From the NCBI GenBank assembly GCA_963666285.1, contig OY762711.1: a DNA stretch of 64,000 nt; one strand, written 5' to 3'. This stretch comes from Sedimentisphaerales bacterium. GTDB taxonomy: Bacteria > Planctomycetota > Phycisphaerae > Sedimentisphaerales > SM23-30. The position numbers and the translations under genes were made by a program. Below the pieces are notes generated by a model that saw only the letters and a program-made list of their open reading frames with translations, made no database searches and was not told where the DNA came from. Shown here one piece after another: positions 34,915-51,771 of this stretch. Each line of letters begins with the position of its first letter. Position 1 is the stretch's first letter.

Positions 34915-34949
34915 TTGCTTTATGATTGTTTTTGCAAGATAATCAATCA
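34915..34949 (+). promoter_or_regulatory. Putative promoter with an overlapping DeoR operator
   Basis: TTGCTT-17 nt-GATAAT (34915-34943) overlapped by the inverted repeat TGATTG-N15-CAATCA. Confidence 0.4.
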
Positions 34950-35080
34950 CTATAATAAGCGATAGTATCAAAAGGAATGTTAGACATATAATATGACACT
35001 AAGGAATAGTCAGGATACTATATTATAAATTGAAGCACTTATATCACGCTCGAATGAGCAAACTCAACTGTGAGGGTTAA

Positions 35081-37039
35081 ATGTTTTATATCACATTGCC
35101 AAAGAAGCTCCATAAAGCCAGCCAAGTTGTTATATATAAATGGCTTACAGGAGTTGGAGAGAAGATTGAAAAGGGACAAACGCTTTGCGTGGTCCATATC
35201 GGTCAGGAATTATTTGAGATCCAATCAGACATATCAGGCTGCCTTTTGAAGCAAACGGCACCGGCTGGCGGCGTTATTTCAGGTGTCGAGCCGGTTGCAG
35301 TAGTCGGAGAAAAAGGCGAAGACGTATCGATATTGGACAAAAACAGCGATATCAATACTGAAAACAAGGCTGAAAACGCAAAACAGGAAGTAATAGAGAG
35401 TAAAACAGAAACACAATCTGCCCAAGCAACCACAGCGGGAGTCGATAAAATGAGTTCAGAAAGTACAAGCTCAGCAGCGCAAGGTGAAGTTATCCCTATA
35501 CTGATGCCTCAAGCAGGTCAGAGTATGGAAGAAGGAACGATAGTAGCGTGGAAAGTAGCGGAAGGCGACCGAATAGAGGTTGGGCAGATAATCATGGAAA
35601 TCGAGACAGACAAAGCAGTTATGGAAGTAGAAGCTGCGGATGCCGGTCTAGTAGCCAAGATAATAAGCAAAGAAGGCGATATAGTCGAGGTTAAGCAGCC
35701 GGTCGCATTTCTGGCAGAAGAAGGCGTTGACCTGAGCTCTTATACAGGTGTAACAGCAACAAGCGAAGCACCAGCAACAAGCGAAGCACCAGCGGCCAGC
35801 AACGGCGCTACCGCGGCGGCGAACGAAGCCCCTGCGGCGATGCCGGAAGGAGTAACGCCGATTCTGATGCCGCAAGCGGGTCAGAGTATGGAAGAGGGAA
35901 CGATTGTAGCCTGGAAAGTAGCAGAAGGCGACCGCATAGAAGTCGGCCAGGTTATAATGGAAATCGAGACAGATAAAGCAGTTATGGAAGTAGAAGCTGT
36001 TGATGCGGGCCGGGTTGCGAAGATTGTGAGCCAGGAAGGTGATATAGTTGAGGTAAAAGAGCCGGTTGCATACCTGGCAGAAGAAGGCGTAGACGTTGAC
36101 GGCTATATCGCGGCGAGCAGCGGCGGTGCAGCAGGCGTCCAGCCGAGCAGCAGCCACCAGCAAGCGAACAAAGGAAGCGTCGCGTCGGCCAACGGCGAGC
36201 TGAAACAATCGAAATCGCCCGCGCAGCGCACTGAGACGGGTCGCGTCAAGGCCTCGCCGGCCGCGCGGAAGGCAGCTGCCGATGCAGGCATCAACCTGTC
36301 ATCGATCAGTGCCGGGTCCGGGCCGGGTGGTCGCATCCTGTCAACGGATGTAAAAAATGCCAAAATCATCCCATCTGAAGAGGTGGTCATACCACTTACC
36401 AAGATGCGTCGAGCAATTGCCAAGAACCTTCAATATTCGAAACAGACAGTACCACATTTCTATATGAAAGGTACTATTGATGCCGCTAAATTATTTGACA
36501 CTTATAAAGCGACTAAAGAAGAGTTCAAATGCTCAGTGAATGATTTTGTTACCATGGCATGTGCCAAGGCAATACGTCAGTACCCGGCATTCAGGAGTCA
36601 GTATATCGACGACCAGATAGTTGAGAAACCACTGGTGAATATCGGTATAGCGGTTGGAACTGATGACGGGCTGACCGTGCCGGTAGTATGCGATATTGAC
36701 AGGATGACACTAGAGAGATTGGCAGCCAGAACTCGTGAGGTAGTGGAATCGGCACGTAACGGCAAGATGGAAGGTGTCGGCCAGGGCATATTTACAATTA
36801 CGAACCTAGGCATGTTCGGCACAGAAGAATTTTCAGCGATAATCAATCCGCCGGAAGCCGCTATCCTGGCAGTCGGCGCGATTCGTGAAGATATAATAGT
36901 TAAAAACGGTGCGATTATGCCGACACGTGTGATGACAATGACGCTGAGCGTTGACCATAGAGTAATTGACGGCGTATTGGCGGCCCAGTTTATGAATACG
37001 CTTAAAGAGACATTAGAGAATCCAGAAAAGCTCCTATAA
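35081..37039 (+). CDS. Dihydrolipoamide acyltransferase E2 (one degenerate and two intact lipoyl domains)
   Basis: Two ETDKA lipoyl domains, ASPAARK..GSGPGGRI E3-binding domain, FTITNLG, DHRVIDG. Confidence 0.95.
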   Translation: MFYITLPKKLHKASQVVIYKWLTGVGEKIEKGQTLCVVHIGQELFEIQSDISGCLLKQTAPAGGVISGVEPVAVVGEKGEDVSILDKNSDINTENKAENAKQEVIESKTETQSAQATTAGVDKMSSESTSSAAQGEVIPILMPQAGQSMEEGTIVAWKVAEGDRIEVGQIIMEIETDKAVMEVEAADAGLVAKIISKEGDIVEVKQPVAFLAEEGVDLSSYTGVTATSEAPATSEAPAASNGATAAANEAPAAMPEGVTPILMPQAGQSMEEGTIVAWKVAEGDRIEVGQVIMEIETDKAVMEVEAVDAGRVAKIVSQEGDIVEVKEPVAYLAEEGVDVDGYIAASSGGAAGVQPSSSHQQANKGSVASANGELKQSKSPAQRTETGRVKASPAARKAAADAGINLSSISAGSGPGGRILSTDVKNAKIIPSEEVVIPLTKMRRAIAKNLQYSKQTVPHFYMKGTIDAAKLFDTYKATKEEFKCSVNDFVTMACAKAIRQYPAFRSQYIDDQIVEKPLVNIGIAVGTDDGLTVPVVCDIDRMTLERLAARTREVVESARNGKMEGVGQGIFTITNLGMFGTEEFSAIINPPEAAILAVGAIREDIIVKNGAIMPTRVMTMTLSVDHRVIDGVLAAQFMNTLKETLENPEKLL

Positions 37040-37051
37040 TAGCTTTTCTAA

Positions 37052-37114
37052 AAGAGTAAATTGTAAAATAAAAAGTGTAAAGAAGGTGTCCAGCACCGTA
37101 CGGTACAGGACCTT
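37052..37114 (+). repeat. Heptamer-run plus bulged GGTGT hairpin repeat
   Basis: aagagta|aattgta|aaataaa|aagtgta|aagaaggtgtcc...ggacctt. Confidence 0.85.
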
Positions 37115-37238
37115 ATTTTAATCGGCTGACGCCGAAATAATTTGAACCACTGATACTGAATTAACGCAGAAAAATAACATTAAAAAGAAGACCGCGTGGG
37201 TACTCCTCAGCAAAAGCTTCGGAATTTACCCACCCTAC
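37115..37238 (+). repeat. About 125-bp repeat ending in a GTAG-type REP-like palindrome, copy 1
   Basis: Aligns with 38715-38844; minus strand reads GTAGGGTGGGTAAA...TACCCACGC. Confidence 0.85.
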
Positions 37239-37251
37239 AGATGGACTAAAA

Positions 37252-38679
37252 ATGGCAGAACATTATGATATAGCAGTACTCGGAGCGGGACCTGGCGGAT
37301 ATGTGGCAGCGTTGAAAGCAGCACAGATGGGTGCCAAGGTTGCGATAGTAGAGAAACATCATTTCGGCGGCACATGCCTGAACTACGGGTGTATCCCGTC
37401 GAAGGCTTTGCTGGCCTCTGCTGAGATGCTGTATAAGATCCATGACTGCAAATCGCTGGAGATAACAGTCGATGGTAAAGTAAGTTTCGATTGGGATAAG
37501 ATCCAGAAGCGTAAGAATAAAGTTCTGACTAAGCTTCGAGGTGGTATTAAGGGGTTGCTTACAGCTCGCAAGGTTAAGCAGTATGCCGGAAAGGCGGTAC
37601 TGGACGGTGTTGGTAAGGTAAACGTTATCGGCGAGAAAGGTACAGAATCATTTACTGCTGAAAAGATAATCCTGGCGGTAGGTTCTACCCCGGCCCGGAT
37701 ACCAGGCTGGCCGACAAAGCCTGATCTGGTATGCACTTCGGACGAAGCGCTGCACTGGAAAGAGCTGCCGAAGAAGCTGCTGATAGTAGGCGGCGGTGTA
37801 ATCGGTTGTGAGTTTGCGTGCATGATGCACGAATATGGTGTTGAGGTGACGATAGTTGAGCTGATGGATAGCCTGCTGCCAGAGATGGAAAGATCGCTGG
37901 GTGAGACACTGGGCGATGTTTTCCGGAAACGTGGGATGAAGATTTATACCGGTGTAAAGGTTGAGAGCCTGACCGAGGATAAAGGCGGGATAAAAGCCGT
38001 ATTGTCCGGTGATGAAAAACTTGAAGTTCATAAAGTACTGGTTGCTACCGGTAGAAGACCGGCGACCGGCGAGATCGGGCTGGAGACTATCGGGCTGGAG
38101 GCCGAGCGAGGTTTTATAAAAGTTAATGATAAAATGGAGACCGCGGTAAAGGGCTATTACTGTATTGGTGACGCGAACGGTCGATGCCTGCTGGCTCATG
38201 CTGCCAGTGCCCAGGGAGAGGTAGCAGTTGAAAATGCACTTGGCCATGATAAGGCACAGACCAGGCCGATACCAGGTGCGGTATATACGTTCCCTGAGAT
38301 AGCGTCGGTTGGGCTGACAACAAAACAGGCTAAAGAGCGAAATATTCCGATCGCGGTCGGCGAGTTTCCGATTGGATATCTCGGTAAGGCGATGGCGGTT
38401 GGCGAAGAGTTCGGGTTTGTCCGGGTGATCCGCAGCCTGGAAGATGATACGCTGCTGGGCGTACATATGATCGGACATAACGCAACTGAGATAATAGAGA
38501 GTGCCGCGGCGATGCTGACACTTAAGGCGAAGGCGAGCGAGTTGGGCGAGATGATATTTGCCCATCCGACAATATCGGAAGCAGTGAAGGAAGCAGCTGA
38601 AGATTCGTTTGAGAAGGCACTGCATATGCCGCCGAGGAAAATAACAACATTAGTTGCAGATTCAAATAAAGTTGGATAA
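37252..38679 (+). CDS. lpdA: Dihydrolipoyl dehydrogenase E3
   Basis: GAGPGGY, GGTCLNYGCIPSK, GGGVIG, HPTISE. Confidence 0.96.
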   Translation: MAEHYDIAVLGAGPGGYVAALKAAQMGAKVAIVEKHHFGGTCLNYGCIPSKALLASAEMLYKIHDCKSLEITVDGKVSFDWDKIQKRKNKVLTKLRGGIKGLLTARKVKQYAGKAVLDGVGKVNVIGEKGTESFTAEKIILAVGSTPARIPGWPTKPDLVCTSDEALHWKELPKKLLIVGGGVIGCEFACMMHEYGVEVTIVELMDSLLPEMERSLGETLGDVFRKRGMKIYTGVKVESLTEDKGGIKAVLSGDEKLEVHKVLVATGRRPATGEIGLETIGLEAERGFIKVNDKMETAVKGYYCIGDANGRCLLAHAASAQGEVAVENALGHDKAQTRPIPGAVYTFPEIASVGLTTKQAKERNIPIAVGEFPIGYLGKAMAVGEEFGFVRVIRSLEDDTLLGVHMIGHNATEIIESAAAMLTLKAKASELGEMIFAHPTISEAVKEAAEDSFEKALHMPPRKITTLVADSNKVG

Positions 38680-38681
38680 GG

Positions 38682-38844
38682 CATAAGGGAAGGATTTGCC
38701 TTACGGCAAAACTAATTTATATCGGCTGACGGCGAAATAATTTGAACGACAAATAAGACACTGAATTAACGCAGATAAAATAATACAAAAAAGATGACAG
38801 CGTGGGTACTCCGCAAACGAGTCTGCGAAATTTACCCACCCTAC
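38682..38844 (+). repeat. CATAAGGGAAGGA-hairpin module plus copy 2 of the REP-like repeat
   Basis: 38682-38713 matches 43723-43753; 38715-38844 matches 37115-37238. Confidence 0.85.
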
Positions 38845-38860
38845 AAAAGGAAAAAGATAG

Positions 38861-40123
38861 ATGGCTGGAACTGAATCTACAAACGGATTCTTAAAGAATA
38901 TTGGGTCAACCGAAGCAATCAAGGCAGAGGCGGGAAATAGCCCGGCCCTGGCAAAGCCTATCGTATCTAACAGTCATATCCATATCCCGCCGAACTTTTC
39001 AGCGTTTGAAACAATCGGTCAGGCGGTTGAGCTGGCGGCGAATGAAGGGATCAATGTTTTGGGGACCGGTAACTATTATGACTTTTCGGTCTATAAAGGG
39101 TTTGCCGATGAATGCCTGGCGAAGAATATCTTTCCGCTGTTCAGTACTGAGATAATCGCGTTGGAGAAAGAGCTGCAGGCGGAAAATATCCGGGTGAACG
39201 ATCCGGGTAACCCTGGTAAATATTATATCTGCGGTAAGAGTATAACGAAATTTGAAGAGTTTACGCCGAGAGCGGCTGAGCTTAACAAGCGGATCCGTGA
39301 TAATGACGCCCTGCGTATGACAGAGATGGCTGCGAAGATGGCGGACTATTTTGCCGGGTTCGGGGTTGATACCAAGCTGGACGATCAGGCGGTAATAGCA
39401 CGAGTTGTGAAACGGCATAACTGCAAGCCTGAAACGGTGACCCTGCAGGAGCGGCATCTGGCACAGGCGTTTCAGGAAGTGTTCTTTGAGCTGGTCGATG
39501 CCGATAGCAGAGCAGCTAAACTGGCAGAGATATTTGGTACCGAACCTAAAGCTGACATTAATGATGCGGTTGGAATCCAGAATGAGATCCGGTCGTATCT
39601 GATGAAGGCCGGTAAGCCATGCTTCGTGGAAGAGTCGTTTGTGACACTGGCCGAAGCGCAGGAATATATCGAAGAGCTGGGCGGGATATCATGTTACCCG
39701 ACGCTGGCGGACGGGTCTAAGGTACCGTGCGAGTATGAAACGCCGGTTGAAAATCTGATCGATACACTAAAGAAGAGTAATTTCCCGATGCTGGAGTTCA
39801 TCCCGAACCGTAATACGCCGGAGGTACTGGAGCAGTATGTAACAGCGGTTCGTAATGCAGGGCTGGTAGTGATAGCCGGGACCGAACATAATACACTGGC
39901 ACTGGACCCGCTTGAACCGAAATGTGTGGGCGGAAAAGATATCCCGGCTAAGGTTCAGGAGATCTTCCATGAAGGTATCTGCGTGCTGGCGGCTCATCAG
40001 TTTTTGTGTGCGAACGGCGAAGCAGGGTTTCCGCAGAGATATAAAGACGCATCGGATAAAGAAAGCGTGATCGAAGAGTTCAGAAAGATAGGAACTGTAG
40101 TTTTGAACAGAAATAACATTTAA
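38861..40123 (+). CDS. PHP-domain metallo-phosphoesterase-like protein
   Basis: NSHIH (HxH), STE, ERHLA, EFIPNRN, AGTEHN. Confidence 0.75.
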   Translation: MAGTESTNGFLKNIGSTEAIKAEAGNSPALAKPIVSNSHIHIPPNFSAFETIGQAVELAANEGINVLGTGNYYDFSVYKGFADECLAKNIFPLFSTEIIALEKELQAENIRVNDPGNPGKYYICGKSITKFEEFTPRAAELNKRIRDNDALRMTEMAAKMADYFAGFGVDTKLDDQAVIARVVKRHNCKPETVTLQERHLAQAFQEVFFELVDADSRAAKLAEIFGTEPKADINDAVGIQNEIRSYLMKAGKPCFVEESFVTLAEAQEYIEELGGISCYPTLADGSKVPCEYETPVENLIDTLKKSNFPMLEFIPNRNTPEVLEQYVTAVRNAGLVVIAGTEHNTLALDPLEPKCVGGKDIPAKVQEIFHEGICVLAAHQFLCANGEAGFPQRYKDASDKESVIEEFRKIGTVVLNRNNI

Positions 40124-40194
40124 AAGAGTAAAGTGTAAAATAAAAAGTGTAAAGAAGGTGTCGCTAGCGCGACCTTGTTTTAAAGCTGACGCAA
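40124..40194 (+). repeat. Heptamer-run, GGTGT hairpin and mini-hairpin forming the leader of the four-helix-bundle gene
   Basis: aagagta|aagtgta|aaataaa|aagtgta|aagaaggtgtcgctagcgcgacctt...gctgacgcaa; nearly identical to 49766-49837. Confidence 0.9.
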
Positions 40195-40557
40195 ATGGAA
40201 AAACTATCCGACAGGACAAAAGAATTTGCAATTAGAATTATAAAATTATGCCAGGTAATAGATTCCAAACCTGGCATAGGAAAGCTGCTATGTAAACAAT
40301 TGCTTCGATCTGGTACATCAATTGGAGCAAATATTGCTGAAAGTGAAGGAGCACAAAGCGATGCTGACTATCTGACAAAATGCAGCATTGCCGTAAAAGA
40401 AGCTCGAGAGACCCAATATTGGCTTGACCTTCTAATACAGTCAGAAATAATAAATGAGAACAGACCAAAAGATATTAAACAAGAAAGCGACGAAATAGTT
40501 GCTATCTTAACTACTATTTGTAAGAAAATGAAAGATAAGCATAACGCTAAAGTGTAA
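40195..40557 (+). CDS. Four-helix-bundle protein (23S rRNA IVS protein/bAvd-like family)
   Basis: RTKEFAIRII, KQLLRSGTSIGANIAE, KEARETQYWL; markedly more AT-rich than its neighbours. Confidence 0.93.
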   Translation: MEKLSDRTKEFAIRIIKLCQVIDSKPGIGKLLCKQLLRSGTSIGANIAESEGAQSDADYLTKCSIAVKEARETQYWLDLLIQSEIINENRPKDIKQESDEIVAILTTICKKMKDKHNAKV

Positions 40558-40660
40558 AGAAGGTATAATGCCGCGGAGCGGCAAGTGAAGAGAAGAACTA
40601 AGAGCGAAGAGTTGCGGTGTTGCTTCGCGACCAAATTTTATCGCTCACATGTGTTCGCGA
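40549..40660 (+). repeat. Repeat cluster downstream of the four-helix-bundle gene
   Basis: AAAGTGTAAAGAAGGT (contains the stop codon), hairpin tgccgc-gga-gcggca, then aagtgaa..gaactaa|gagcgaa|gagttgc|ggtgttgcttcgcgacc. Confidence 0.85.
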
Positions 40661-40709
40661 ATAAATAAGAATAAAAGATTAACGCAAAACAGGATTTGAA
40701 AGATTAAAG

Positions 40710-41795
40710 ATGGCAGATGTAACAGATAAAATAAATATAATATCGCCGATGCTAAGAGGGCTGCTGGCGAAAGATGATATACGGCCTGTGATCAGTTTTG
40801 TTGAAGCAGCTGACTGCAAATGCAGCGGAGTAAAAGTATCTATCAGCGATTACGATGAAGCTAAGGTACTGGAGGCCCTGGCCGGAGCGGTACAAGGTAA
40901 AGATGCAGAATGTGTCGAGGTTGAAGGTGTCGGCTGCTTTAATGTGAAATATCCCGAACCGGACCCTGTTAAACGGGTATGCGGCAAGGTAGCGATTGTG
41001 ACCGGTGCGGCGCAAGGGTTTGGGCTTGAGATAGCACAGGATCTGGTCGGACAGGGAGCGTATGTGGTGCTGGCGGACCTTAATATCGAAGCGGCAGAAA
41101 ACGAAGCGAAACTGCTGCAGGAAAAGTTCGGCGCTGATAATGCATATGCTATAAAGATGAATGTGACCGATCTGGTATCGATAAAGGAAGCGATATCAAC
41201 TGTCGTGAAGAGATACGGCGGGTTTGATGTGTTTGTCTCTAATGCCGGTGTGCTGAAGGCTGAAAGTGTGAAGACACAGCCGGAGAAGGATTTCGATTTT
41301 GTTACGGCGGTAAACTATAAAGGCTATTTTCTGACGACCCAGGTGGTATCGCAGATATTGAGCCGCCAGAATAAAGCTAACCGGTCGCTCTATAGCGATA
41401 TTATCCAGATAAACTCCAAGAGCGGGCTGGTCGGTTCTAACAGGAACGGAGCTTATGCCGGCGGCAAGTTCGGCGGGATCGGGTTGACCCAGTCGTTTGC
41501 GTTGGAATTGATCGATGACGGGATAAAAGTTAACTCGATCTGTCCTGGTAATTTCTTTGATGGGCCGCTCTGGTCTGAGCCTACGAACGGGCTGTTTGCC
41601 CAGTATCTGAGGACGGGTAAGGTGCCAGGTGCCAAGACAATCGAAGATGTAAAACATTTTTATGAAGAAAAGGTGCCGATGAAACGCGGGTGTACGACCG
41701 CTGATGTGATGAAGGCGGTGTATTACCTGATCGAACAGAAATATGAAACCGGGCAGGCAGTACCTGTTACCGGCGGACAAGTAATGTTAAATTAA
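40710..41795 (+). CDS. SDR oxidoreductase, sorbitol-6-phosphate dehydrogenase (SrlD)-like, with an N-terminal extension
   Basis: TGAAQGFG, SNAG, INSKSG.VGS..N..YAGGKFGGIGLTQS.ALEL, KVPMKRGC. Confidence 0.88.
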   Translation: MADVTDKINIISPMLRGLLAKDDIRPVISFVEAADCKCSGVKVSISDYDEAKVLEALAGAVQGKDAECVEVEGVGCFNVKYPEPDPVKRVCGKVAIVTGAAQGFGLEIAQDLVGQGAYVVLADLNIEAAENEAKLLQEKFGADNAYAIKMNVTDLVSIKEAISTVVKRYGGFDVFVSNAGVLKAESVKTQPEKDFDFVTAVNYKGYFLTTQVVSQILSRQNKANRSLYSDIIQINSKSGLVGSNRNGAYAGGKFGGIGLTQSFALELIDDGIKVNSICPGNFFDGPLWSEPTNGLFAQYLRTGKVPGAKTIEDVKHFYEEKVPMKRGCTTADVMKAVYYLIEQKYETGQAVPVTGGQVMLN

Positions 41796-41819
41796 AAAAC
41801 AACAGTTTTTTAATTTAAC

Positions 41820-42007
41820 AAGTGAAGAACTAAGAGTGAAGAGTGAAGAGTTGCGGTGTCGCTGACGCGACCTTAAATAAAGTATAAAGTGTAAAATAAA
41901 AAGTGTAAAGATGGTGTTCGCTAACGCTCACAACTTAAATTTAGAGCAAACGCGACGTTATTTTTAATCGGCTAAAGCCGATAATGTCGAGCTCCCGAAA
42001 ATCGGGA
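41820..42007 (+). repeat. Two tandem heptamer-run/GGTGT hairpin units plus further hairpins
   Basis: aagtgaa|gaactaa|gagtgaa|gagtgaa|gagttgc|ggtgtcgctgacgcgacc; aagtata|aagtgta|aaataaa|aagtgta|aagatggtgttcgctaacgctcac; atcggctaaagccgat; tcccgaaaatcggga. Confidence 0.88.
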
Positions 42008-42045
42008 TTACATTCGGCTCGGCGTTCCCAGGAAGGAATAGGACA

Positions 42046-43713
42046 ATGGAAAATACAATACCAGCAAACCAGCAGGCAATCCAGCTTGTAGGTGAAGATA
42101 AACTGATACATAATACCGATAAGCCGGTTGATAAGCCGGGCCCGTACCAGATACTGCTGAAAGTTGAGGCACTGGGTTTATGTTTCTCTGACCTGAAACT
42201 GCTCAAGCAGTTCAATAACCATGTGCGTAAGAGCGAGATACTGTCTGGAATTGACCCGGCAGTCTTGAAAGAACTGCCGAGCTATAAGCCGGGGACAGAG
42301 CCGGTTGTGCCGGGCCATGAGGCGTATGGTGTAATTGTCGCGGTCGGTGATAAGGTAACCCATCATAAAGCGGGTGAAAAGGTACTGGTCCAGACAGACT
42401 ATCGCTGGCTGAAGACAAAGAACTCCAACTCTGCGTTCGGGTATAATATCGAAGGCGGGCTGCAGCAGTATGTGATACTGGACGAGCGAGTGATAATTGA
42501 GCCTGACAGCGGCGAAAGTTTCCTGATACCGGTTGATAAGGATATCAGTGCAGCGTCTATCGCACTGGTGGAGCCCTGGGCGTGTGTGGAAAGCTCTTAT
42601 ATAACCGAAGAGCGTAATACATTAAAGCCGGGCGGACGGCTGCTGGTAGTGAAGGATGAGGGAAAGAGTATAAGCGGGATCGCGGCGAGCTTATCAGATA
42701 AAGGTGAGCCGGCGGAAGTTACTACATTCGGAGTTAACAGCGACCTGGCGGATATTGAAACTGACGCTAAAGAAGCGGCGAGCCTGGCTGAGCTGCCAGC
42801 TGAATATTATGACGATATTATCTATTTCGGTTCTGATAAAGCGACAATCGAGCTGCTGGATGAAAAGCTGGCGGCCCAGGGTATAATCAATATCGTACTT
42901 TGCGGTGACAAGATCGGTGAAGAAGTATCGGTTGGTGTCGGCCGCACTCATTACGGTATGACACGCTGGATCGGAACGGTCGGATGTGATGCGTGTGAAA
43001 GCTATAAGACAGTGCCGGCGATGGGCGAGATACGACCGAATGATAAGGTCCTTATTATCGGAGCTGCCGGACCGATGGGGCAGATGCATGTTATCCGGGT
43101 ATTGTCGCTGGAGACCGAGAACCTGACCGTAGTTGGAACTGACTTTGACGATGAGCGGATCGAATCGCTGGCAGCGAAAGCCGAGCCGCTGGCGAAACAG
43201 AATAATGTGAAGTTGTCGCTGGTCAATCCTAAAAACAATCCTGTGACTGACAAGTTCAGCTACTTTGCGATAATGGCACCGGTTGGACCACTGGTCGCAC
43301 AGGCGATTAAGGACAGCAGCGAAGGTGCTTTAATAAATATCTTTGCGGGTATCCCGGCGACGGTTAAGCAGGAGATAGACCTGGACCTTTATATTGCCAA
43401 TAAGTGCTTCATGTTTGGTACGAGCGGATCGCGCTTGTCTGATATGAAGATCGTACTGGAGAAAGTTTTGACCGGTAAGCTGAATACTAATTGTTCGGTG
43501 GATGCGATATCCGGTATAGCCGGTGCGATTGACGGTATCCGAGCGGTAGAAGCACGAGCGCTGGCAGGTAAGATAATCGTGTTCCCGCAGAAGCCTGATA
43601 TGCCGCTGACACCGCTGACCGAACTGGCAGAGAAGATGCCGGAAGTGGCCGCGAAGCTGGATAACGGGCTGTGGACAAAAGAAGCGGAAGAAGAGTTGCT
43701 AAAGCAGGGATAA
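42046..43713 (+). CDS. Zn-dependent medium-chain dehydrogenase, L-sorbose-1-phosphate reductase (SorE)-like
   Basis: LCFSDLK, VPGHE, ALVEPWACV, GAAGPMG, FGTSG; 555 aa. Confidence 0.85.
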   Translation: MENTIPANQQAIQLVGEDKLIHNTDKPVDKPGPYQILLKVEALGLCFSDLKLLKQFNNHVRKSEILSGIDPAVLKELPSYKPGTEPVVPGHEAYGVIVAVGDKVTHHKAGEKVLVQTDYRWLKTKNSNSAFGYNIEGGLQQYVILDERVIIEPDSGESFLIPVDKDISAASIALVEPWACVESSYITEERNTLKPGGRLLVVKDEGKSISGIAASLSDKGEPAEVTTFGVNSDLADIETDAKEAASLAELPAEYYDDIIYFGSDKATIELLDEKLAAQGIINIVLCGDKIGEEVSVGVGRTHYGMTRWIGTVGCDACESYKTVPAMGEIRPNDKVLIIGAAGPMGQMHVIRVLSLETENLTVVGTDFDDERIESLAAKAEPLAKQNNVKLSLVNPKNNPVTDKFSYFAIMAPVGPLVAQAIKDSSEGALINIFAGIPATVKQEIDLDLYIANKCFMFGTSGSRLSDMKIVLEKVLTGKLNTNCSVDAISGIAGAIDGIRAVEARALAGKIIVFPQKPDMPLTPLTELAEKMPEVAAKLDNGLWTKEAEEELLKQG

Positions 43714-43792
43714 GTGATATGTCATAAGGGAAGGAAACGCCTGCGGCGAAACTTATAATAAAAAACAATAAGTAGGAAAACGGAAACGGATT

Positions 43793-44857
43793 ATGGAAAT
43801 ATTGCAGATAATAACCGAATTGTCGCACGAGTTTGGTACAAGTGACTATGTACGCGGCGGCGGTGGTAATACATCATGTAAGAGTACTGAAACACTGTGG
43901 GTAAAACCATCCGGTACAACGCTGGCCGGGTTGAAGCCCGAACTATTTGTTGCACTTGACCGTGAGAATCTGGGCGGGCTGTATAAGGTAGAGACACCGA
44001 CAGAGCCGGCTGAGAGAGAAGTACTGGTAAAGGATATAATGGCAAACGCGGTAATGCTGGGCAGTAAAGGTCGTGCATCGGTTGAAGCACCGCTGCATGA
44101 TTCGCTGAGTGCGACTTATGTTGTACATACGCATCCATATTTAGTTAACGGTATGACCTGCGGAAAAGAAGGTAAGGCCAAATGCAAAGAGCTGTTTCCA
44201 GATGCGCTGTGGCTGGACTATATCGACCCGGGCTATACGCTGTGTATGTTTGTTCGTGAAGAGATCAAGAAATATGCCGAGGCGAACGGCCAGGAGCCGA
44301 AGATGATCTTTTTGAAGAATCATGGCGTCTTTGTCGCCGGTGATACAGCAGATGAAGTTCGCGGAATCTATAAGACGATTATTGATACGCTAACGAATTA
44401 CTACGATGAAAAAGGGATTACAGCCGAACTGGCAGTTGAGCCGGACCCGGACGATGACGCAGTTGACCAGGTTGGGCTGAAGCTGGCAGAATGTTTGAGC
44501 GATGAGACTGTCGCAGTTGCGGCATGCGGGATGTTTGACTATCCGCAAGGACCGATTACGCCGGACCATATAGTATATGCGAAGTCTTATCCGTTTGTCG
44601 GCGAGCCGAGTGAGGAAGCGATTAATGAGTTCAAAGCCAAACATGGATACGAGCCAAAGATAGTAGTCTGCTCGGATGCCGTATTTGGTATCGGGCCGAC
44701 AGAGACCAAGGCGGCTCTGGCACTGGAGCTGGCTATTGATGGAGCAATTGTTTTGAAACTAGCGGAAGCTTTTGGCGGAATTGATCTTATGACGGACCAG
44801 GCACGTGAATTTATCGAAAACTGGGAAGTTGAATCTTACCGAAGCAAACAGATCTAA
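43793..44857 (+). CDS. Class II aldolase/adducin-fold protein (resembles the aldolase half of RhaEW)
   Basis: GGGGNTSCK, VKPSG, ASVEAPLH, VVHTHP, LKNHG, TPDHIVY, NWEVESYR. Confidence 0.88.
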   Translation: MEILQIITELSHEFGTSDYVRGGGGNTSCKSTETLWVKPSGTTLAGLKPELFVALDRENLGGLYKVETPTEPAEREVLVKDIMANAVMLGSKGRASVEAPLHDSLSATYVVHTHPYLVNGMTCGKEGKAKCKELFPDALWLDYIDPGYTLCMFVREEIKKYAEANGQEPKMIFLKNHGVFVAGDTADEVRGIYKTIIDTLTNYYDEKGITAELAVEPDPDDDAVDQVGLKLAECLSDETVAVAACGMFDYPQGPITPDHIVYAKSYPFVGEPSEEAINEFKAKHGYEPKIVVCSDAVFGIGPTETKAALALELAIDGAIVLKLAEAFGGIDLMTDQAREFIENWEVESYRSKQI

Positions 44858-45185
44858 GTGAAAATCTTTTGGTGCCCCGATGTACATCGGGAGCTATTAA
44901 TATAGTTTGCGTAAAAGGCAATATAAATAGAAGTAAGAATAACTACTATCTATAGTAGTGCAAAACCGGGCATCAAGCCCTAATTATCAATAACAATCGA
45001 ATACGGAATTTAATTAAATCAGCAGGAGATATTGCGGTTTTTCCTGCTGCGCGTATATTTTAACACCGGTAGTGTTCATATTCGGACCACTGCTTTTTAA
45101 CCTTTACAGAGTACATATATAGAATATAATAAAACGTAAATCTATCCGAATTGTATCTTGTAATAAAAATGAAAGGGTAATTGCT

Positions 45186-46652
45186 ATGAGCGAAAAGCAT
45201 GCATATGCAGCTGTTGACCTTGGGGCTGAGAGCGGCCGCGTGGTCAAGGGCATCCTGAGTAACGGGAAACTAGAACTGGAAGAGATCAACAGGTTCAAAA
45301 ACGGACTTGTCCCTATCGATGGTCACGATCACTGGAACCTGATCAGGTTGTACGAGAATATGATCGAGGCGTTTAAGATCTGTGCCAAGAGCGACGTGCC
45401 AATCGAAAGTATTGGTGTGGATTCCTGGGGAGTGGACTTTGCCCTGATGGCTGAGGATAATGCCCTGATGGGATTGCCGGTGGCTTACCGTGACAGCCGA
45501 ACCGACGGGATGATGGAGAAGCTGTTTGAGAAGATGCCTAAGGATAAGGTTTACGAGAAGACCGGAATCCAGTTTATGAAGTTTAACTCTGTTTACCAGC
45601 TGTTTTCACTTACCCAGGCGAATAAGTCATGGATGGATAAGGTGACAGACTTTCTTATGGTGCCGGACTATTTTCATTTTCTGTTTACCGGTAAAAAGAC
45701 CAATGAATACACAAACGCATCTACCACCCAGCTGCTGAACGTTGAGACAGGTACATGGGACACAGAGCTGCTGGAGACTATTGGTATTAATCCTTCGATA
45801 TTCAAAGAGCTGATCAAGCCGGGAACAAAGATCGGACCGATCACCGAGCAACTTCAGCAGGCGACAGGACTGGGACCGGTTCCGGTGATTGCCCCTGGTA
45901 CGCATGATACTGCATCGGCAGTTGCGGCTGTACCGGCGGAAGGCGGCAAATGGGCATATATAAGCTCAGGCACCTGGTCGCTGATGGGTATTGAAGCCGA
46001 TAAGCCAAACAGCACGCAGAAAGCCTTTGGATATAACTTCACAAATGAAGGCGGCGTATTTAATACGATCAGATTTTTGAAGAATATCATGGGACTGTGG
46101 CTGGTGCAGAGATGCAGGGCTGCATTTGACAAGGAGATCGACTATGGTACACTGACACAGATGGCGGCAGATGCCCCGGCGTTTGTAAGCCTGGTGGATC
46201 CGGATTGCGATGCGTTTATGAACCCTGCATCAATGACAGATGCGATAGATGAATTCTGTAAGAAGACCGGTCAGCCGGTGCCTGCGTCGGAAGGTGCATA
46301 TGTACGCTGCTGCCTGGAGAGCCTGGCACTGCAGTATCGACTGGTACTGGATATGCTGGGTGATGTATATGAAACCGATTTCGATAAGATTAATATCGTT
46401 GGCGGCGGCACCCAGAATAAACTGCTGAACCAGTTTACTGCTGATGCATGTAACGCGGAAGTTGTGACCGGTCCGATTGAAGCTACAATAATCGGAAATG
46501 TGATCATGCAGGCTATCGGAATGGGGCATATCAAGGACCTGAGCGAAGGGCGTCAGATAATACGCAACTCGTTCGAGATGGAGACATTTAAGCCTGGTAA
46601 TGCCGCGGCATGGGACGAGCAATACGAACGGTTTAAGAAGTTGAAAAAATAG
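45186..46652 (+). CDS. rhaB: Rhamnulokinase
   Basis: AVDLGAESGR, IGVDSWGVD, YRDSRT, TGIQFM, THDTASA, ISSGTWSL, FTNEGG, LKNIMGLW. Confidence 0.93.
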   Translation: MSEKHAYAAVDLGAESGRVVKGILSNGKLELEEINRFKNGLVPIDGHDHWNLIRLYENMIEAFKICAKSDVPIESIGVDSWGVDFALMAEDNALMGLPVAYRDSRTDGMMEKLFEKMPKDKVYEKTGIQFMKFNSVYQLFSLTQANKSWMDKVTDFLMVPDYFHFLFTGKKTNEYTNASTTQLLNVETGTWDTELLETIGINPSIFKELIKPGTKIGPITEQLQQATGLGPVPVIAPGTHDTASAVAAVPAEGGKWAYISSGTWSLMGIEADKPNSTQKAFGYNFTNEGGVFNTIRFLKNIMGLWLVQRCRAAFDKEIDYGTLTQMAADAPAFVSLVDPDCDAFMNPASMTDAIDEFCKKTGQPVPASEGAYVRCCLESLALQYRLVLDMLGDVYETDFDKINIVGGGTQNKLLNQFTADACNAEVVTGPIEATIIGNVIMQAIGMGHIKDLSEGRQIIRNSFEMETFKPGNAAAWDEQYERFKKLKK

Positions 46653-46684
46653 TTAGCGGTTAGCAGAAAGCATAGCTGTTTATT

Positions 46685-47077
46685 ATGAATCATGTTGGAA
46701 AGAAATTATGGGTTGTGCCGGACGGATATATACCGGCATTAACTGACAACGACAAGGATAACGTTAACGGATATCTGTCACACGAATGCGCGTGCATACT
46801 GAATTGCGGGCCTGGTGATGCCGAGATAGAGCTGACAGTCTATTTTGAAGATTGTGAACCGGTTGTGATCGGCGGCATAGTAGTGCCGGCGAGGCGCAGT
46901 TCGCACCTCAGAATGGACGAGCTGGAAATCGACGGTAAAGCCGCGATACCACGAGCGAAACCCTATTCGCTGGTGGTGAAGAGCAGTACGGCGGTGGTGG
47001 TGCAGATGTCCAGATTGGATACAACACAAACAAATATGGCATTTTTATCAACAATGGCTATACCATATGACATTTAA
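46685..47077 (+). CDS. Anabaena sensory rhodopsin transducer (ASRT)-family protein
   Basis: GKKLWVVPDGYIP, SHE..CILN, TVYFED.EP, VPARR..HLR, VVVQ.SRLDT. Confidence 0.85.
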   Translation: MNHVGKKLWVVPDGYIPALTDNDKDNVNGYLSHECACILNCGPGDAEIELTVYFEDCEPVVIGGIVVPARRSSHLRMDELEIDGKAAIPRAKPYSLVVKSSTAVVVQMSRLDTTQTNMAFLSTMAIPYDI

Positions 47078-47100
47078 TAAGAAATAATGGAGAATCTAGT

Positions 47101-48366
47101 ATGTCAAAGAATATTGAACAAGCTTACGAAATTGCAAAAGAAAAGTATGCAGCGATCGGAATTGATACCGAAGCGGCGATGAAGAAACTTGAGACCGTGC
47201 CAGTGTCAATTAATTGCTGGCAGGGAGACGATGTGGGCGGTTACGAACACGTGGGCGGCGCAGAGCTGACCGGCGGTATCCAGACGACCGGAAACTACCC
47301 GGGTAAGGCTCGCACAATAGATGAGCTTCGCAGCGATATCGAAAAAGCCATAAGCCTGATACCTGGCAACCATCGATTGAACCTTCATTCATGCTACCTG
47401 GATAATGGCGGCAAGTTTATCGATCGTAACGAGATGGAGCCCAGCCATTTCCAGAGCTGGATAGACTGGGGTAAGGGCAAGCTTCACGGGATGGACTTTA
47501 ACCCGACCTATTTCTCACACGATAAAGCCGGTGACGGTTTTACCTTGAGCCATCCGGACAAGGGAATCCGCGATTTCTGGATCGAGCATGGTATTGCATG
47601 CCGAAAGATCGGTGCGGAAATGGGTAAACAGTTCGGTACAACAACAGTAACAAACTACTGGATGCCGGATTCATATAAAGATACACCGGCTGACCGTGTT
47701 GCACCTCGCGAACGTATGGCCGATTCGCTGGACAAGATTTTTGTTGAAGATATCGATCCGAAGCTGCACCTGGATGCGGTTGAATCAAAACTGTTTGGTA
47801 TCGGCGGCGAAAGCTATACTGTAGGATCGCACGAATTCTTTATGGGTTATGCGGTATCACGTCAGAAGGTACTATGTCTGGACGCGGGTCACTACCATCC
47901 AACAGAAATGATCTCAGAAAAGATTTCATCTGTAATGATGTTCTGCCCGGAACTACTGCTACATGTAAGCCGTCCAGTTCGTTGGGACAGCGACCACGTA
48001 GTATGTTTCGATGACGAACTACAGCAGATTGCCAAAGAGCTGGTCCGCAGCGGCAAGCTGGAAAAGGTACATATCGGACTGGACTTCTTTGACGCCTCTA
48101 TCAACCGTGTAGCGGCATGGGTAATCGGTACCCGTAATATGGTTAAGGCAATGCTCTTTGCCATGCTGGAGCCAACCGAAACTCTGCGTAAGATTGAACT
48201 GGAAATGAACTATACCGAGCGACTGGTAATATTCGAAGAATTGAAGACAATGCCTTGGGCAGCTGTATGGGATTACTACTGCATGAAACAGGGAGCTCCT
48301 GTCGGCCTGGACTGGTTCAAGGTTGTTAAGCAGTATGAAAAAGAAGTTCTGTCCAAACGCGGCTAA
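47101..48366 (+). CDS. rhaA: L-rhamnose isomerase
   Basis: CWQGDDV, TGNYPGKAR, DFNPT, AVESKLFGIG.ESYTVGSHEF, LDAGHYHPTE, HVSRPVRWDSDHV. Confidence 0.97.
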   Translation: MSKNIEQAYEIAKEKYAAIGIDTEAAMKKLETVPVSINCWQGDDVGGYEHVGGAELTGGIQTTGNYPGKARTIDELRSDIEKAISLIPGNHRLNLHSCYLDNGGKFIDRNEMEPSHFQSWIDWGKGKLHGMDFNPTYFSHDKAGDGFTLSHPDKGIRDFWIEHGIACRKIGAEMGKQFGTTTVTNYWMPDSYKDTPADRVAPRERMADSLDKIFVEDIDPKLHLDAVESKLFGIGGESYTVGSHEFFMGYAVSRQKVLCLDAGHYHPTEMISEKISSVMMFCPELLLHVSRPVRWDSDHVVCFDDELQQIAKELVRSGKLEKVHIGLDFFDASINRVAAWVIGTRNMVKAMLFAMLEPTETLRKIELEMNYTERLVIFEELKTMPWAAVWDYYCMKQGAPVGLDWFKVVKQYEKEVLSKRG

Positions 48367-48398
48367 TTACTAGCTGATTTTTCAAAAAAGTCAATATT

Positions 48399-48437
48399 GC
48401 ACGGATGTTTGGATATCATCTGAACGTCCGTGCTTTT
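48399..48437 (+). terminator. Hairpin/terminator after rhaA
   Basis: GCACGGATGTTTGGA...TCTGAACGTCCGTGC followed by TTTT. Confidence 0.65.
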
Positions 48438-48517
48438 GTCGTATCATAAGCGATGTGTCAGGGGGACTGGATCACAGCCCTGAATACGAAATTCTACTTC
48501 ACAATCAGGAGATTATT

Positions 48518-49765
48518 ATGGATCTTAACATTCTTGCAGAAGCAAATCCGACTGTAGGTATAATTATTTTTATGCTCGGCGGTCTGGCCGGAGCAGTATT
48601 TTATACTCCTCTGAAAAAGGTAAAAGACTGGGCCTGGGAAAGCTACTGGATGATCTATGCAGTGTTTGCCTTGCTAATTGTACCCATTGTGCTGGCATTT
48701 ATTGTATCGCCCAATTTCATATCAGTAATCAAAGCATCACCAAAAGAAGAAGTCATAAAATGCTTTATATGCGGAGCAGCATGGGGCATCGGCGGTCTGA
48801 CCTGGGGACTAATGATCCGCTTTCTCGGATTTGGCCTGGGCCTGGCGTTAGGTTGCGGTATCTGTTCAGCAGCAGGAACATTTCTGCCACCAATAATAAA
48901 AGGTGGAGAAGATTTGAATAAATTATTCACAACAAATGGCGGTAAAATATCAGTCTTAAGTGCGATCATATCAGTTGCCGGTATAGTATTTGTTGGCATG
49001 GCAGGTATGAGTAAAGAAAATGAACTGCCGGAAGAAGAAAAGAAAAAGGCAGTTGCAGAATTTAATTTCAAAAAAGGCATTATCGCTGTTTTATTTTCAG
49101 GCTTGATGAGTTCGGCAATGAGTATCGGCCTGCAAGGCGGACCAACAATTGAATCGTTGGCAAAGACCACTGAGCCAGTGACAAATATCGCCTGGGCCGG
49201 AATACCTGTATTAGTAGTTGTATTACTAGGCGGTTTTATTATTAATGCCGGATGGTGCCTGATATTAAATATCAAAAATAAGACAACCGGCGACTACGTA
49301 AAGAGCAGCTCACCGATTTTACCGAATCTTATTTTTGCCGCTATTGCCGGTGCTATCTGGTGTTCACAGTTTATCTGCTTTAAGACAGGTGAGCCACAGA
49401 TGGGCGATACAGCTTATATAGGCTGGGCAGTACTAATGGCAAGTTCAATTCTATTCAGCCAGGTAATAGGCATGTTCTTTGGCGAATGGAAAGGCGTAAG
49501 TAAAAAGACAATGCAGCTGCTTGTCATTGGCTTAATTCTACTAATCGTTTCAGCAGTAGTTGCCGGTTACAGCGGAAAAGTCGCAAAAGATGAAGCTGCA
49601 AAAGTTGAAAGTGCTGCTGCCGGTCAGTTAGAAAAGACAGATGAACCTGCCCCGGTTATGCCGGCGAAGAAACTCACGCCTGCGGTAAAAACAGATGAAG
49701 CTGCCGGGGCAGTAGAAGAAGCAGTTGAAAAGGTCGAAGAAGCTGCCGAGGATATGAAGCAGTAG
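48518..49765 (+). CDS. rhaT: L-rhamnose/proton symporter with an acidic C-terminal tail
   Basis: FYTPLKKVKDWAWE.YW, WGIGGLT.GL, EFNFKKG, GEWKG. ATG at 48518 follows AGGAG; the track starts at 48455. Confidence 0.92.
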   Translation: MDLNILAEANPTVGIIIFMLGGLAGAVFYTPLKKVKDWAWESYWMIYAVFALLIVPIVLAFIVSPNFISVIKASPKEEVIKCFICGAAWGIGGLTWGLMIRFLGFGLGLALGCGICSAAGTFLPPIIKGGEDLNKLFTTNGGKISVLSAIISVAGIVFVGMAGMSKENELPEEEKKKAVAEFNFKKGIIAVLFSGLMSSAMSIGLQGGPTIESLAKTTEPVTNIAWAGIPVLVVVLLGGFIINAGWCLILNIKNKTTGDYVKSSSPILPNLIFAAIAGAIWCSQFICFKTGEPQMGDTAYIGWAVLMASSILFSQVIGMFFGEWKGVSKKTMQLLVIGLILLIVSAVVAGYSGKVAKDEAAKVESAAAGQLEKTDEPAPVMPAKKLTPAVKTDEAAGAVEEAVEKVEEAAEDMKQ

Positions 49766-49837
49766 AAGTGTAAAGTGTAAAATTAAAAGTGTAAAGAAGG
49801 TGTCGCTTGCGCGACCTGATTTTTAAGGCTAACGCAA
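49766..49837 (+). repeat. Heptamer-run, GGTGT hairpin and mini-hairpin with no following small gene
   Basis: aagtgta|aagtgta|aaattaa|aagtgta|aagaaggtgtcgcttgcgcgacct...gctaacgcaa. Confidence 0.9.
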
Positions 49838-49864
49838 GATGTAACTTTCATTTAGTATATTATG

Positions 49865-49900
49865 ATTAGTCTCTGCGATCAGGTAGAGACTAATCTTTTC
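49865..49900 (+). terminator. Rho-independent terminator after rhaT
   Basis: GATTAGTCTCT...AGAGACTAATC followed by TTTT. Confidence 0.7.
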
Positions 49901-50051
49901 TGTAACTGTTCACATAGCTACAGTTATAAGTAACAAGATATAAGCGTTGTTAATGAATTTATAATACTGTAATCATTAACTCTTTTCTTTATTTTCTAAT
50001 CGAATTGCGTCATTTTAATCAAAGTCGGATAATATTCAGGGTGGATATAAT

Positions 50052-51593
50052 ATGTCAGATCAGAACGAAAAAACATCACATGGAAATGAATACGAGCGAG
50101 AGCCGGTCCCGGAAAAGGCACTGTTGGGCTTTAAGAGTTTTGTTGGCATGTATGCAGGCGAGCATTGTGCCGGAACAGAGCTGATGATCGGTCCGCTGTT
50201 TGTGGCGGCGGGAGTAAGTGCGTTTGATATTGTCGCGGGACTGCTGATAGGCAACCTGCTGGCGGTACTAAGCTGGATGCTGTTTTGTGCACCAATCGCC
50301 ACCCGCACCCGGCTGACATTATACTACCAGGCAGAGAAGATCTGCGGCCGCCACCTGGTAACGATCTACAACCTGGCAAATGGTGTGATGTTTACTATAC
50401 TTGCCGGTGCGATGATCATGGTGGCAACAACAGCATTTGGCCAATGGTTTAAGCTTCCGATGCCTGGCCTGAACGATATGTACCCCAATAGTGCAGTCTG
50501 GATAATAGCGGTTTTGTTAGTTGGCTCTGTAATTTCACTGGTAGCCAGCTGCGGTTATAAGATGGTATCGAATATCGCCAATATGGCGGCCCCATGGCTG
50601 GTTTTAATGTTCATTGTGTGTGGAATAATTGCGCTGGGCGAATTTATCAAGGTATCGGGCCGTGAGGTTAATTCGGCGACCGATCTGTGGGAGCTGGCAG
50701 ATAAGGTAATCTGGCGAGGCGGAAAGCCATTTCCCGGTCAGGTTAAATTTTCTTTCTGGCATGTAATGTTCTTTGCGTGGTTCTGCAACATGGCATGGCA
50801 TATAGGTATGAGTGATTTAACGATATTTCGCTTTGCGAGGAGGTCATGGTACGGTGCCGCATCGGCGACTGGAATGTACCTGGGCCATTTCATCGCATGG
50901 CTGGCAGCCGGTATGCTGTATTCGCTGCAGATGTACAAGATCGACCTGCAGCCTGCTGAGCTTGATGCGCTGAGGGAAGCAGGAATCCTGGCAAAACTGC
51001 AAAGTCAGGAGATGATCCTGACAGCAGATACAATCCGGGAATTAATAGCAACCGGCGTATTGAAGAGCCCCCCTGCCGTATTGCCGGGCCCGATGACATA
51101 TTCAGCTGTTGGAGTAGCAGGCCTGATATGTGTAATCATGGCAAGCTGGACAACCGCGAACCCGACAATATACCGGGCCGGACTGGCATTCCAGGCAATC
51201 ATGCCAAGATTTTCACGATTTAAGGTCACCTTTGTAATAGGTCTGATAGCAACACTGACAGGTATGTTTCCGGCAGTTGCGATGCAGCTGCTCGACTTTG
51301 TCGCATTATGGGGATTGATCTTAATGCCTATGGGAGCGATAATCTTTGTAGATTTCTGGCTGTTCAAAAAGCTGGGACTTAAGAGTAACTATGCCGAGCT
51401 GAGTAAGAAACATTTCAACATAGCGGCCGGACTGGCATGGCTAATATCGGTATCAATCTGTTTCTGGCTGGCCTATACCGGCAAAGTACAGATATATTTC
51501 GTTTCGCTGCCCGGCTGGTTCTTAACAACCATACTATACATATCGATAAGCATGTTCTACCAGAAAAGGAAACTCGAAAATGAAAACAATTAG
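50052..51593 (+). CDS. Purine-cytosine permease (NCS1)-like transporter
   Basis: EYEREPVP, YAGEH.AGTE.MIGPLF, WTTANPTIYRAGLA, about 12 TM segments. Confidence 0.8.
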   Translation: MSDQNEKTSHGNEYEREPVPEKALLGFKSFVGMYAGEHCAGTELMIGPLFVAAGVSAFDIVAGLLIGNLLAVLSWMLFCAPIATRTRLTLYYQAEKICGRHLVTIYNLANGVMFTILAGAMIMVATTAFGQWFKLPMPGLNDMYPNSAVWIIAVLLVGSVISLVASCGYKMVSNIANMAAPWLVLMFIVCGIIALGEFIKVSGREVNSATDLWELADKVIWRGGKPFPGQVKFSFWHVMFFAWFCNMAWHIGMSDLTIFRFARRSWYGAASATGMYLGHFIAWLAAGMLYSLQMYKIDLQPAELDALREAGILAKLQSQEMILTADTIRELIATGVLKSPPAVLPGPMTYSAVGVAGLICVIMASWTTANPTIYRAGLAFQAIMPRFSRFKVTFVIGLIATLTGMFPAVAMQLLDFVALWGLILMPMGAIIFVDFWLFKKLGLKSNYAELSKKHFNIAAGLAWLISVSICFWLAYTGKVQIYFVSLPGWFLTTILYISISMFYQKRKLENENN

Positions 51594-51771
51594 TCTAATA
51601 GCAACAATCATCGGCTATAGCTCTCTCGCGGGATTGACACTTTCGTCTTTGCTATTTCTGTCAGGCAGGTTAGAGCTGGATCAGACCAAGCAGCACATAC
51701 TAATAGCTACTTTCGTATGGTTTATAACTGCGGGGTTCAATATGTACCAGTCCGCGAAACGCGACAAATGA
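51580..51771 (+). CDS. Small two-TM membrane protein
   Basis: 63 aa, two hydrophobic helices, overlaps the transporter stop, AAGGA RBS. Confidence 0.7.
   Translation: MKTISLIATIIGYSSLAGLTLSSLLFLSGRLELDQTKQHILIATFVWFITAGFNMYQSAKRDK

Follow-up and report, generated by a model that had tools for sequence, protein, structure and literature searches.

Hairpin repeats of a Sedimentisphaerales chromosome are oriented along strand-polarity blocks

We analysed a window of 64,000 nt, the whole stretch presented above, from contig OY762711.1 of a Sedimentisphaerales bacterium (assembly GCA_963666285.1). In this window a short intergenic repeat, made of purine-rich heptamers and a hairpin, recurs at the junctions of a dehydrogenase and rhamnose-use operon. 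The orientation of copies of the same family follows blocks of the chromosome, tens of kilobases in length, and not the direction of genes; the copies may well be single arms of a two-armed hairpin repeat.

Repeat copies in the window

A first-pass annotation of the window had listed eight stretches of this repeat. All eight are present, and every full copy runs, as it described, from a 7-periodic purine run through GGTGT into a hairpin (Table 1). The register that had been described as a 2-nt bulge is common to five copies (37052, 40124, 40583, 41820 and 49766), including the change between gtcg/cgac and gtcc/ggac. The copies at 41880 and 4508 represent a second type with a tandem TC/TC mismatch, and the one at 4508, which had been called diverged, is instead a member of a longer subfamily. 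A further sister module with another heptamer word, absent from the earlier list, is found at about 46653, and a CGG-rich tract lies on the + strand about 35 kb before the window.

The copies had also been described as sense-oriented, shortly after or overlapping stop codons. This is true of the window, where all of them are on the + strand and 0-92 nt past a sense stop or overlapping it, but genome-wide the contexts are mixed. The remark that they lack a U-tract needs correction for three window copies, which pass a simple scan for a GC stem with a U-tract; the region as a whole holds 14 such sites compared with 11.1+-3.2 in shuffles, and many copies genome-wide are antisense. The copies are dispersed in 207 clusters over 6.15 Mb with no regularly spaced array, in agreement with the statement that they are not clustered regularly interspaced short palindromic repeats (CRISPR).

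Table 1. Positions of the repeat copies and associated features in the window
Feature	Position	Strand	Remark
Part of one polarity block, silent sites purine-rich on +	1..59000	+	from before the window start to about 59000
Multi-hairpin unit of ~200 nt containing copy 4508-4549	4435..4640	+	subfamily of ~58 members
Repeat copy made up of heptamers, a GGTGT hairpin that contains a long palindrome, a T-rich linker and another mini-hairpin	37052..37132	+	13 nt past stop of E2 (dihydrolipoamide acyltransferase)
Sister module, different heptamer word and two T..C-loop hairpins	38680..38745	+	directly 3' of lpd stop; not in the first-pass list
Repeat copy beginning at stop of PHP-like gene	40124..40192	+	missing from X4 contig
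Four-helix-bundle gene, TIGR02436 / PF05635, 120 aa	40195..40557	+	missing from X4 contig and four relatives
Truncated arm, exact 16-nt direct repeat of 40144-40159	40549..40564	+	provides stop codon of the four-helix-bundle gene
Repeat copy present in X4 contig	40583..40632	+	end of replaced segment is first base of copy
Repeat copy	41820..41872	+	25 nt past short-chain dehydrogenase stop
Repeat copy, tandem-mismatch type (TC/TC on +, GA/GA on -)	41880..41931	+	
Sister module, different heptamer word and T..C-loop hairpin	43714..43750	+	after dehydrogenase stop; not in the first-pass list
Degenerate copy: one heptamer, GGTGC, palindrome	44857..44892	+	at stop of aldolase-like gene; not in the first-pass list
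Repeat copy with second mini-hairpin	49766..49836	+	begins right after rhaT stop

Copy number and gene context

An iterated profile search gave 265 copies at E<=0.01, all of them on the 6.15-Mb contig of this genome (G000:C1 below; G001, G003, G004 and G015 denote relatives), and 0 matches on the reversed chromosome. A 20-nt pattern gave 109 matches and 0 with the reversed control. The GGTGT foot is exact in 201 of 265 copies, and 264 of 265 lie outside called genes. By gene calls made for this analysis (4271 genes, with some short genes missed), tandem junctions hold 125 sense and 47 antisense copies, another 49 are between divergent and 43 between convergent genes, and 1 is inside a gene. 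For 53 of the 169 copies with a sense upstream gene the stop codon of that gene is within 75 nt, while only 4 of 96 are near an antisense start.

Neither the repeats nor the starter element described below matched Rfam 15 at gathering score, where only neighbouring tRNAs match. The genome has 5 Y1 transposase (PF01797) matches, whose flanks are unrelated and hold no repeat copies, 2 GIY-YIG matches, and no GxxExxY gene above cut-off. In the main texts of largely open papers we found no published description of the repeat unit or of the polarity blocks, the blocks being less widely searched.

The hairpin and its folding strand

A unit has 2-5 purine heptamers followed by GGTGT, a hairpin and a T-rich linker, after which another hairpin, of two pairs, is often present (80 copies parsed). 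Units contain nested palindromes, one such module being carried by 72 of the 258 copies with a near-exact foot. Rigid registers place 87 of these 258 copies in the tandem-mismatch type and 37 in the plain-stem type, with 134 in neither. Stems vary among GCC, GAC, GGC and GC. The first-pass annotation had made its reading depend on stem covariation, and this covariation is real: 194 of 201 stem positions across GCC, GAC and GGC stems are Watson-Crick in a count that does not impose pairing, taken in place of the register parse, which demands complementarity.

On the opposite (pyrimidine) strand, the loop starts with G and ends with A in 74 of 87 tandem-mismatch hairpins and 30 of 37 plain-stem hairpins, and the tandem mismatch reads GA/GA in 77 of 87. 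The loop sequence varies while G..A stays, and only 8 of 83 tetraloops are GNRA. Tandem GA pairs are stable in DNA. G..A-loop hairpins outside the family copies also favour the pyrimidine strand (126 vs 59). The sequence GCGN(N)AGC occurs in 141 copies on the pyrimidine strand, compared with 7 on the purine strand; it is a DNA mini-hairpin motif with a sheared G-A pair and is far less stable as RNA (PMC13037366). Since G..A loops, GA/GA mismatches and the mini-hairpin motif are all found on the pyrimidine strand, we infer that the folded form is single-stranded DNA (ssDNA) of this non-sense strand.

Orientation along polarity blocks

The 207 copy clusters form 45 orientation runs, compared with 104.5+-7.1 expected (10,000 shuffles), and neighbouring copies up to 20 kb apart agree in orientation in 91-94% of cases, genes in 55-64%. 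Judged by the silent-site skew of their surroundings, which was calculated on coding sites, 221 copies point with the skew, 8 against it and 36 are unclear.

The blocks for the codon test were defined by the repeats and nothing else. In co-oriented genes purines make up 53-55% of fourfold-degenerate sites, in anti-oriented genes 35-37%, whichever the replichore, and this contrast was reached in 0 of 5000 block permutations. Genes in the blocks run almost equally in both directions (674 of 1284 co-oriented, 610 of 1284 against). In silent-site purine the asymmetry is 0.17 for blocks vs about 0.02 for replication; the replichore keto skew (G>C, T>A) exists separately, and the block skew is purine-type with about 44 switches. 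On the purine strand GAG, AG and GCG are enriched and CTC, TC and CT are depleted. The skew is not evident in three 65-kb contigs.

Other sequences also follow the blocks. Of 311 heptamer runs of any word, 266 could be classified, and of these 249 go with the skew, 14 go against it and 3 are ties. Most tRNA genes that could be assigned also point along their block (29 vs 12, 14 unclear). Several transposase-like multicopy families are biased to one orientation (7:1, 7:1, 6:1 and 4:0), while other multicopy families lean oppositely (1:4 and 0:3). The block direction is shared by three reverse transcriptase loci and by several further multicopy families. Three identical transposase genes of the insertion sequence IS200-like type lie against it, one of them in weak skew (G000:C1:2682800, 4206138 and 5410617).

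Two origins of the polarity were considered and dropped. Blocks as inverted pieces of an older replication skew were rejected, as the skew type differs and orthologue values are uncorrelated between genomes. Polarity of the type of FtsK and its orienting sequences (KOPS) was not retained, since the skew peaks where blocks start and then fades, in contrast with the behaviour of KOPS.

The first-pass annotation had offered RNA processing or stability as one reading. Signals for processing, stability or weak termination in polycistronic transcripts, with the heptamers bound by a pentameric four-helix-bundle protein, would explain the copies just past sense stops, the excess of sense over antisense copies at tandem junctions (125 vs 47) and the three window copies that pass the terminator scan; moreover, 2RLD, the best solved relative of the window protein, has five chains. 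However, 47 copies are antisense and 49 divergent, 37 of the 47 follow the block direction, heptamers of the same operon in G003 are reversed relative to transcription, and the loops are not typical RNA tetraloops on either strand. As orientation tracks blocks, and loop and mismatch chemistry fits ssDNA of the non-sense strand, this reading is not supported, and we consider such mRNA signals very unlikely.

Starter elements and the cause of polarity

A non-coding element of about 570 nt is present in 30 copies, and the skew is positive downstream of 30 of 30 and upstream of 15 of 30. This starter element has a T/G-rich 5' part and a CGG-rich 3' part and is lineage-specific (e.g. L176:219-780, L175; G000:C1); 150 other genomes of the order gave no full-length match and two short weak ones. 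No clear promoter or covariation was found in it. The skew that follows 56 non-coding CGG-rich tracts falls from 0.09-0.12 within 20 kb to 0.06 between 20 and 40 kb and 0.025 between 40 and 60 kb downstream, and repeat copies cluster just downstream of most CGG tracts.

Such a pattern could come from one-way mutation or strand exposure, if the pyrimidine strand were often single-stranded downstream of CGG-rich elements and both substitutions and repeat insertion were thereby biased to one orientation. The decay of skew with distance from CGG tracts agrees with this, as do the identity of the folding and pyrimidine strands, the same preference in G..A hairpins elsewhere, the uncorrelated silent-site purine of orthologues (r=-0.15, n=101) and the one-sided orientation of several transposase-like families. 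However, rare transversions in co-oriented repeats are strand-symmetric (141/7843 vs 198/10233; ratio 0.93, 95% range 0.75-1.15), where a mutational cause would need a ratio of about 1.44 at an equilibrium of about 0.59 purine; the repeats used in this test are perhaps under selection of their own. The block effect on GC skew is also weaker in intergenic DNA (about 0.07) than at silent sites (about 0.18), while the replication effect is about equal in both, although intergenic DNA turns over, and the families leaning 1:4 and 0:3 go the opposite way. Rare-variant symmetry and the weaker intergenic block effect favour selection over one-way mutation, and we regard the mutational or exposure origin as unlikely.

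The four-helix-bundle gene and its junction

The four-helix-bundle protein of the window has named close relatives from several other phyla, the best at about 65-73% identity. The first-pass annotation had suggested that junctions be compared between strains for gain or loss of small gene cassettes. A contig from another study, X4 (471 nt, depth 4.7, 5 differences in 430 aligned bases), joins window position 40092 to 40583 through 41 other letters. Thirty of these are unlike both direct repeats, and they seem to provide the upstream gene with another end. In four relatives the PHP-like and dehydrogenase genes are adjacent, with neither the four-helix-bundle gene nor a repeat copy. Therefore copy 40124, the four-helix-bundle gene and the truncated arm make up one variable block, by replacement starting inside the upstream gene and not by clean insertion.

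The second reading offered earlier, a recombination or insertion site for small gene cassettes, is partly supported. A narrower version would make the copies the attachment sites at which a dedicated cassette system places small genes, the four-helix-bundle ones among them. Gain or loss is supported by X4 and the four relatives, 16-nt direct repeats flank the gene, and heptamer runs flank most of 80 homologue loci (upstream in 61 and downstream in 62, of which 58 are C-rich or even on the sense strand). The expected enrichment near four-helix-bundle genes is seen in part: 2 of 10 such genes are within 150 nt of a copy vs 129 of 4131 genes overall (p=0.037), but only 2 of 265 copies adjoin one and the other 263 do not. 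Moreover, both direct repeats are missing from the empty allele, a GGTGT unit was scored at 1 of the 80 homologue loci, and 0 of 22 metagenome repeat loci have a four-helix-bundle gene within 700 nt. Such a cassette system is thus highly improbable. Among co-oriented four-helix-bundle genes in this genome, none has a downstream arm of the kind seen at the homologue loci.

A local amplification is seen at G000:C1:45322-46300, where two nearly identical four-helix-bundle genes stand in tandem with the start of a third, each of them behind the same purine repeat. Another such gene (G000:C1:6020424-6020744) lies in a weakly anti-oriented block and has on both sides one heptamer repeat of its own, which is pyrimidine-rich on the sense strand of the gene. 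A long imperfect inverted repeat is located 3' of an acetyltransferase gene (window 10694-10858); a related stretch is upstream of the four-helix-bundle gene at G000:C1:5233579, and similar ones exist in G003. Both lpd and the PHP-like gene are preceded by another repeated intergenic sequence, about 75 nt in length, which itself contains repeats of 9-10 nt (window 37159-37236 and 38759-38843).

Related genomes and two-armed forms

Among 30 relatives, the 20-nt pattern has 3 matches in G015, 2 chance-like matches in G004 and none in the other 28. By pattern search the repeat family was not found in three same-genus genomes (72-98% complete). Silent-site blocks in the same-genus genome G003 (400 kb of 4.6 Mb) are as strong as here, with an opposite-strand neighbour correlation of 0.64 vs 0.45-0.60, and weak in G001 (400 kb; 0.19). 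Silent-site purine of orthologues is uncorrelated with this genome (r=-0.15, n=101 for G003; r=0.05, n=107 for G001), while heptamer runs follow the skew in 25 of 25 cases in G003 and 3 of 5 in G001. For example, G003 has the same rhamnose operon in a reversed block, where the heptamer runs are pyrimidine-rich on the sense strand and one of them is just before a start codon. As G003 has blocks without the repeat family, and reversed heptamers in the operon, the blocks are independent of the family, and which arm is visible depends on the block.

A metagenome scan gave 22 stretches, of which 15 score as real units (some redundant) and 7 are chance-like. An inverted partner scores in five metagenome loci and is visible in several more, and two of the two-armed loci fold into long hairpins (z about -7). 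G015 contains an inverted pair between convergent genes. In this genome an inverted partner within 200 nt is found for 0 of 265 copies, and neighbouring heptamer runs are inverted in 4 cases vs 99 in the same direction (among 328).

These comparisons bear on the possibility that the copies are functional priming or loading sites, where a mini-hairpin that resists single-strand DNA-binding protein (SSB) and adjoins a pyrimidine run would draw in primase or some other motor when a block unwinds from its starter. The single-strand priming sites of phage G4 and plasmid ssiA contain mini-hairpins, to which SSB binds poorly (PMC13037366), the G..A is kept here despite the varying loop, and copies cluster downstream of CGG tracts. 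Nevertheless, the family was not found in the three same-genus genomes though the blocks of G003 are equally strong, two-armed forms elsewhere have the same hairpin on both strands, and a close strain lacks one copy, which leaves this role quite unlikely.

At the junction that holds the four-helix-bundle block here, a GTAG-type palindrome provides the stop of the PHP-like gene in G003 (L003, ~2735-2762). With a different repeat at the same junction in G003, this junction attracts different repeats independently. The PHP-like orthologue of G001 (L004) is shorter, with a TAG stop inside the matched region.

Comparison with known systems

A close functional likeness is to repetitive extragenic palindromes and their dimers (REP/REPIN), of which the GTAG- and CGTC-tagged kinds are short imperfect palindromes with an unpaired tag at one foot and hundreds of extragenic copies, present as singles and dimers, often near stop codons and sometimes providing them (Di Nocera et al. 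2013, PMC3733652). In contrast, the foot here is GGTGT/ACACC and not GTAG/GGAG or CGTC, a 7-periodic arm is attached, no gene for a REP-associated tyrosine transposase (RAYT) flanked by copies was found in this genome, 49 copies are between divergent genes, and blocks set the orientation. Inverted dimers, absent from the 265 copies here, are present in metagenome loci and G015. The unit thus works like REP/REPIN yet does not belong to them by its tag or by a RAYT gene.

Heptamers and four-helix-bundle genes have been seen together in the 23S rRNA intervening sequence of Coxiella burnetii, where a PF05635 gene encoding S23p follows variable-number tandem heptamers inside a selfish element (PMC4990558). 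Unlike in such ORF-bearing rRNA intervening sequences, the gene here is between protein genes, its flanks are direct repeats and not complementary ends that would form an RNase III stem, and almost all copies are geneless. The TAACTGA heptamers of Beggiatoaceae, Cyanobacteria and Bacteroidetes are likewise intergenic, lineage-specific and in tandem sets of 2-6 (MacGregor 2015, PMC4679880), and eight Microcystis sets between stop codons share one chromosomal orientation (PMC4679880); however, they are mostly just upstream of start codons, and the available text of that paper describes no hairpin anchor.

Four reverse transcriptase matches exist in this genome, none of them in the window, and no template/variable repeat pair of a diversity-generating retroelement (DGR) was seen, though no search aimed at one was made. 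DGRs use Avd, a four-helix-bundle protein. The target hairpin of the Bordetella phage BPP-1 DGR is a DNA hairpin near a stop with a variable stem and an important G..A loop, but its loop is GRNA on the sense strand and its stem has 8-10 bp (PMC3240598). The Rho-driven purine bias of genes is also a purine excess at synonymous sites that is independent of replication direction, but it follows the sense strand of each gene, whereas the one here follows blocks (PMC13323073).

Discussion

With a probability of about 0.52, we propose that the copies are single arms of a two-armed hairpin repeat which likely spreads as ssDNA, and that the alignment of nearly all copies with the strand-polarity blocks likely reflects selection against pyrimidine-rich sequence on one strand of each block. 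The ancestral form would be an inverted dimer of a non-autonomous, REP-like DNA repeat, which some enzyme would copy by way of the folded pyrimidine strand; the four-helix-bundle protein may be a helper or a passenger in this. Units may land preferentially just after stop codons, and the arm that would place a G-poor run on the purine strand may be lost or never fixed, i.e. filtered by block polarity.

Several observations weigh against this proposal. No mobilising enzyme adjoining the repeats was found in the genome, and nearest-neighbour energies favour neither strand (DNA -3.42 vs -3.38). Gene direction still matters, as 75 of 598 co-oriented tandem gaps contain a copy vs 25 of 602 anti-oriented ones, a threefold difference. 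The filled and empty alleles differ by replacement and not by clean insertion, the empty allele comes from the single low-depth contig X4, and the rare-variant test has the caveat given above. For the step that involves Rho, terminator-like sites after purine-strand genes are only slightly rarer (73 of 893 vs 101 of 910, p=0.04), and the starter element has no excess of sigma-70-like sites.

Rho in Bacillus subtilis targets an excess of C and T (PMC13323073), which is what the purine strand avoids here. Two rho-like genes are present in the genome (G000:C1:1463841-1464959, L174; G000:C1:5946911-5948155, L173); one of the pair is full-length with an N-terminal extension, and the other is shorter and below the family cut-off. 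From the C/T avoidance, the two genes and the lean of tRNA genes, long transcripts that start at CGG-rich elements, cross genes of either direction and avoid Rho are named as the likeliest selective agent, though a doubtful one because terminator-like sites are barely depleted and no promoter stands out in the starter.

More broadly, and at somewhat under even odds, the single chromosome would consist of dozens of polar blocks, and a repeated non-coding element would launch each of them. A one-way machine, either Rho-shielded long-range transcription or a DNA motor, would run for tens of kilobases regardless of gene direction, select silent codons, orient repeats and insertion sequences, and make a two-armed selfish hairpin one-armed.

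What is new here is the strand rule of the DNA mini-hairpin, the empty allele, the reversed operon of G003, the 30/30 polarity of the starter element and the evidence against a mutational cause. The repeats link heptamer repeats, DNA mini-hairpins and the four-helix-bundle gene family. Replication or the direction of individual genes accounts for the known strand asymmetry of bacteria, and the blocks are a third, larger asymmetry that ignores both. A second species, in which gene order is rearranged, shows it as well. Among its read-outs the repeats are the most visible, and as the polarity starts at definable elements, it is directly testable.

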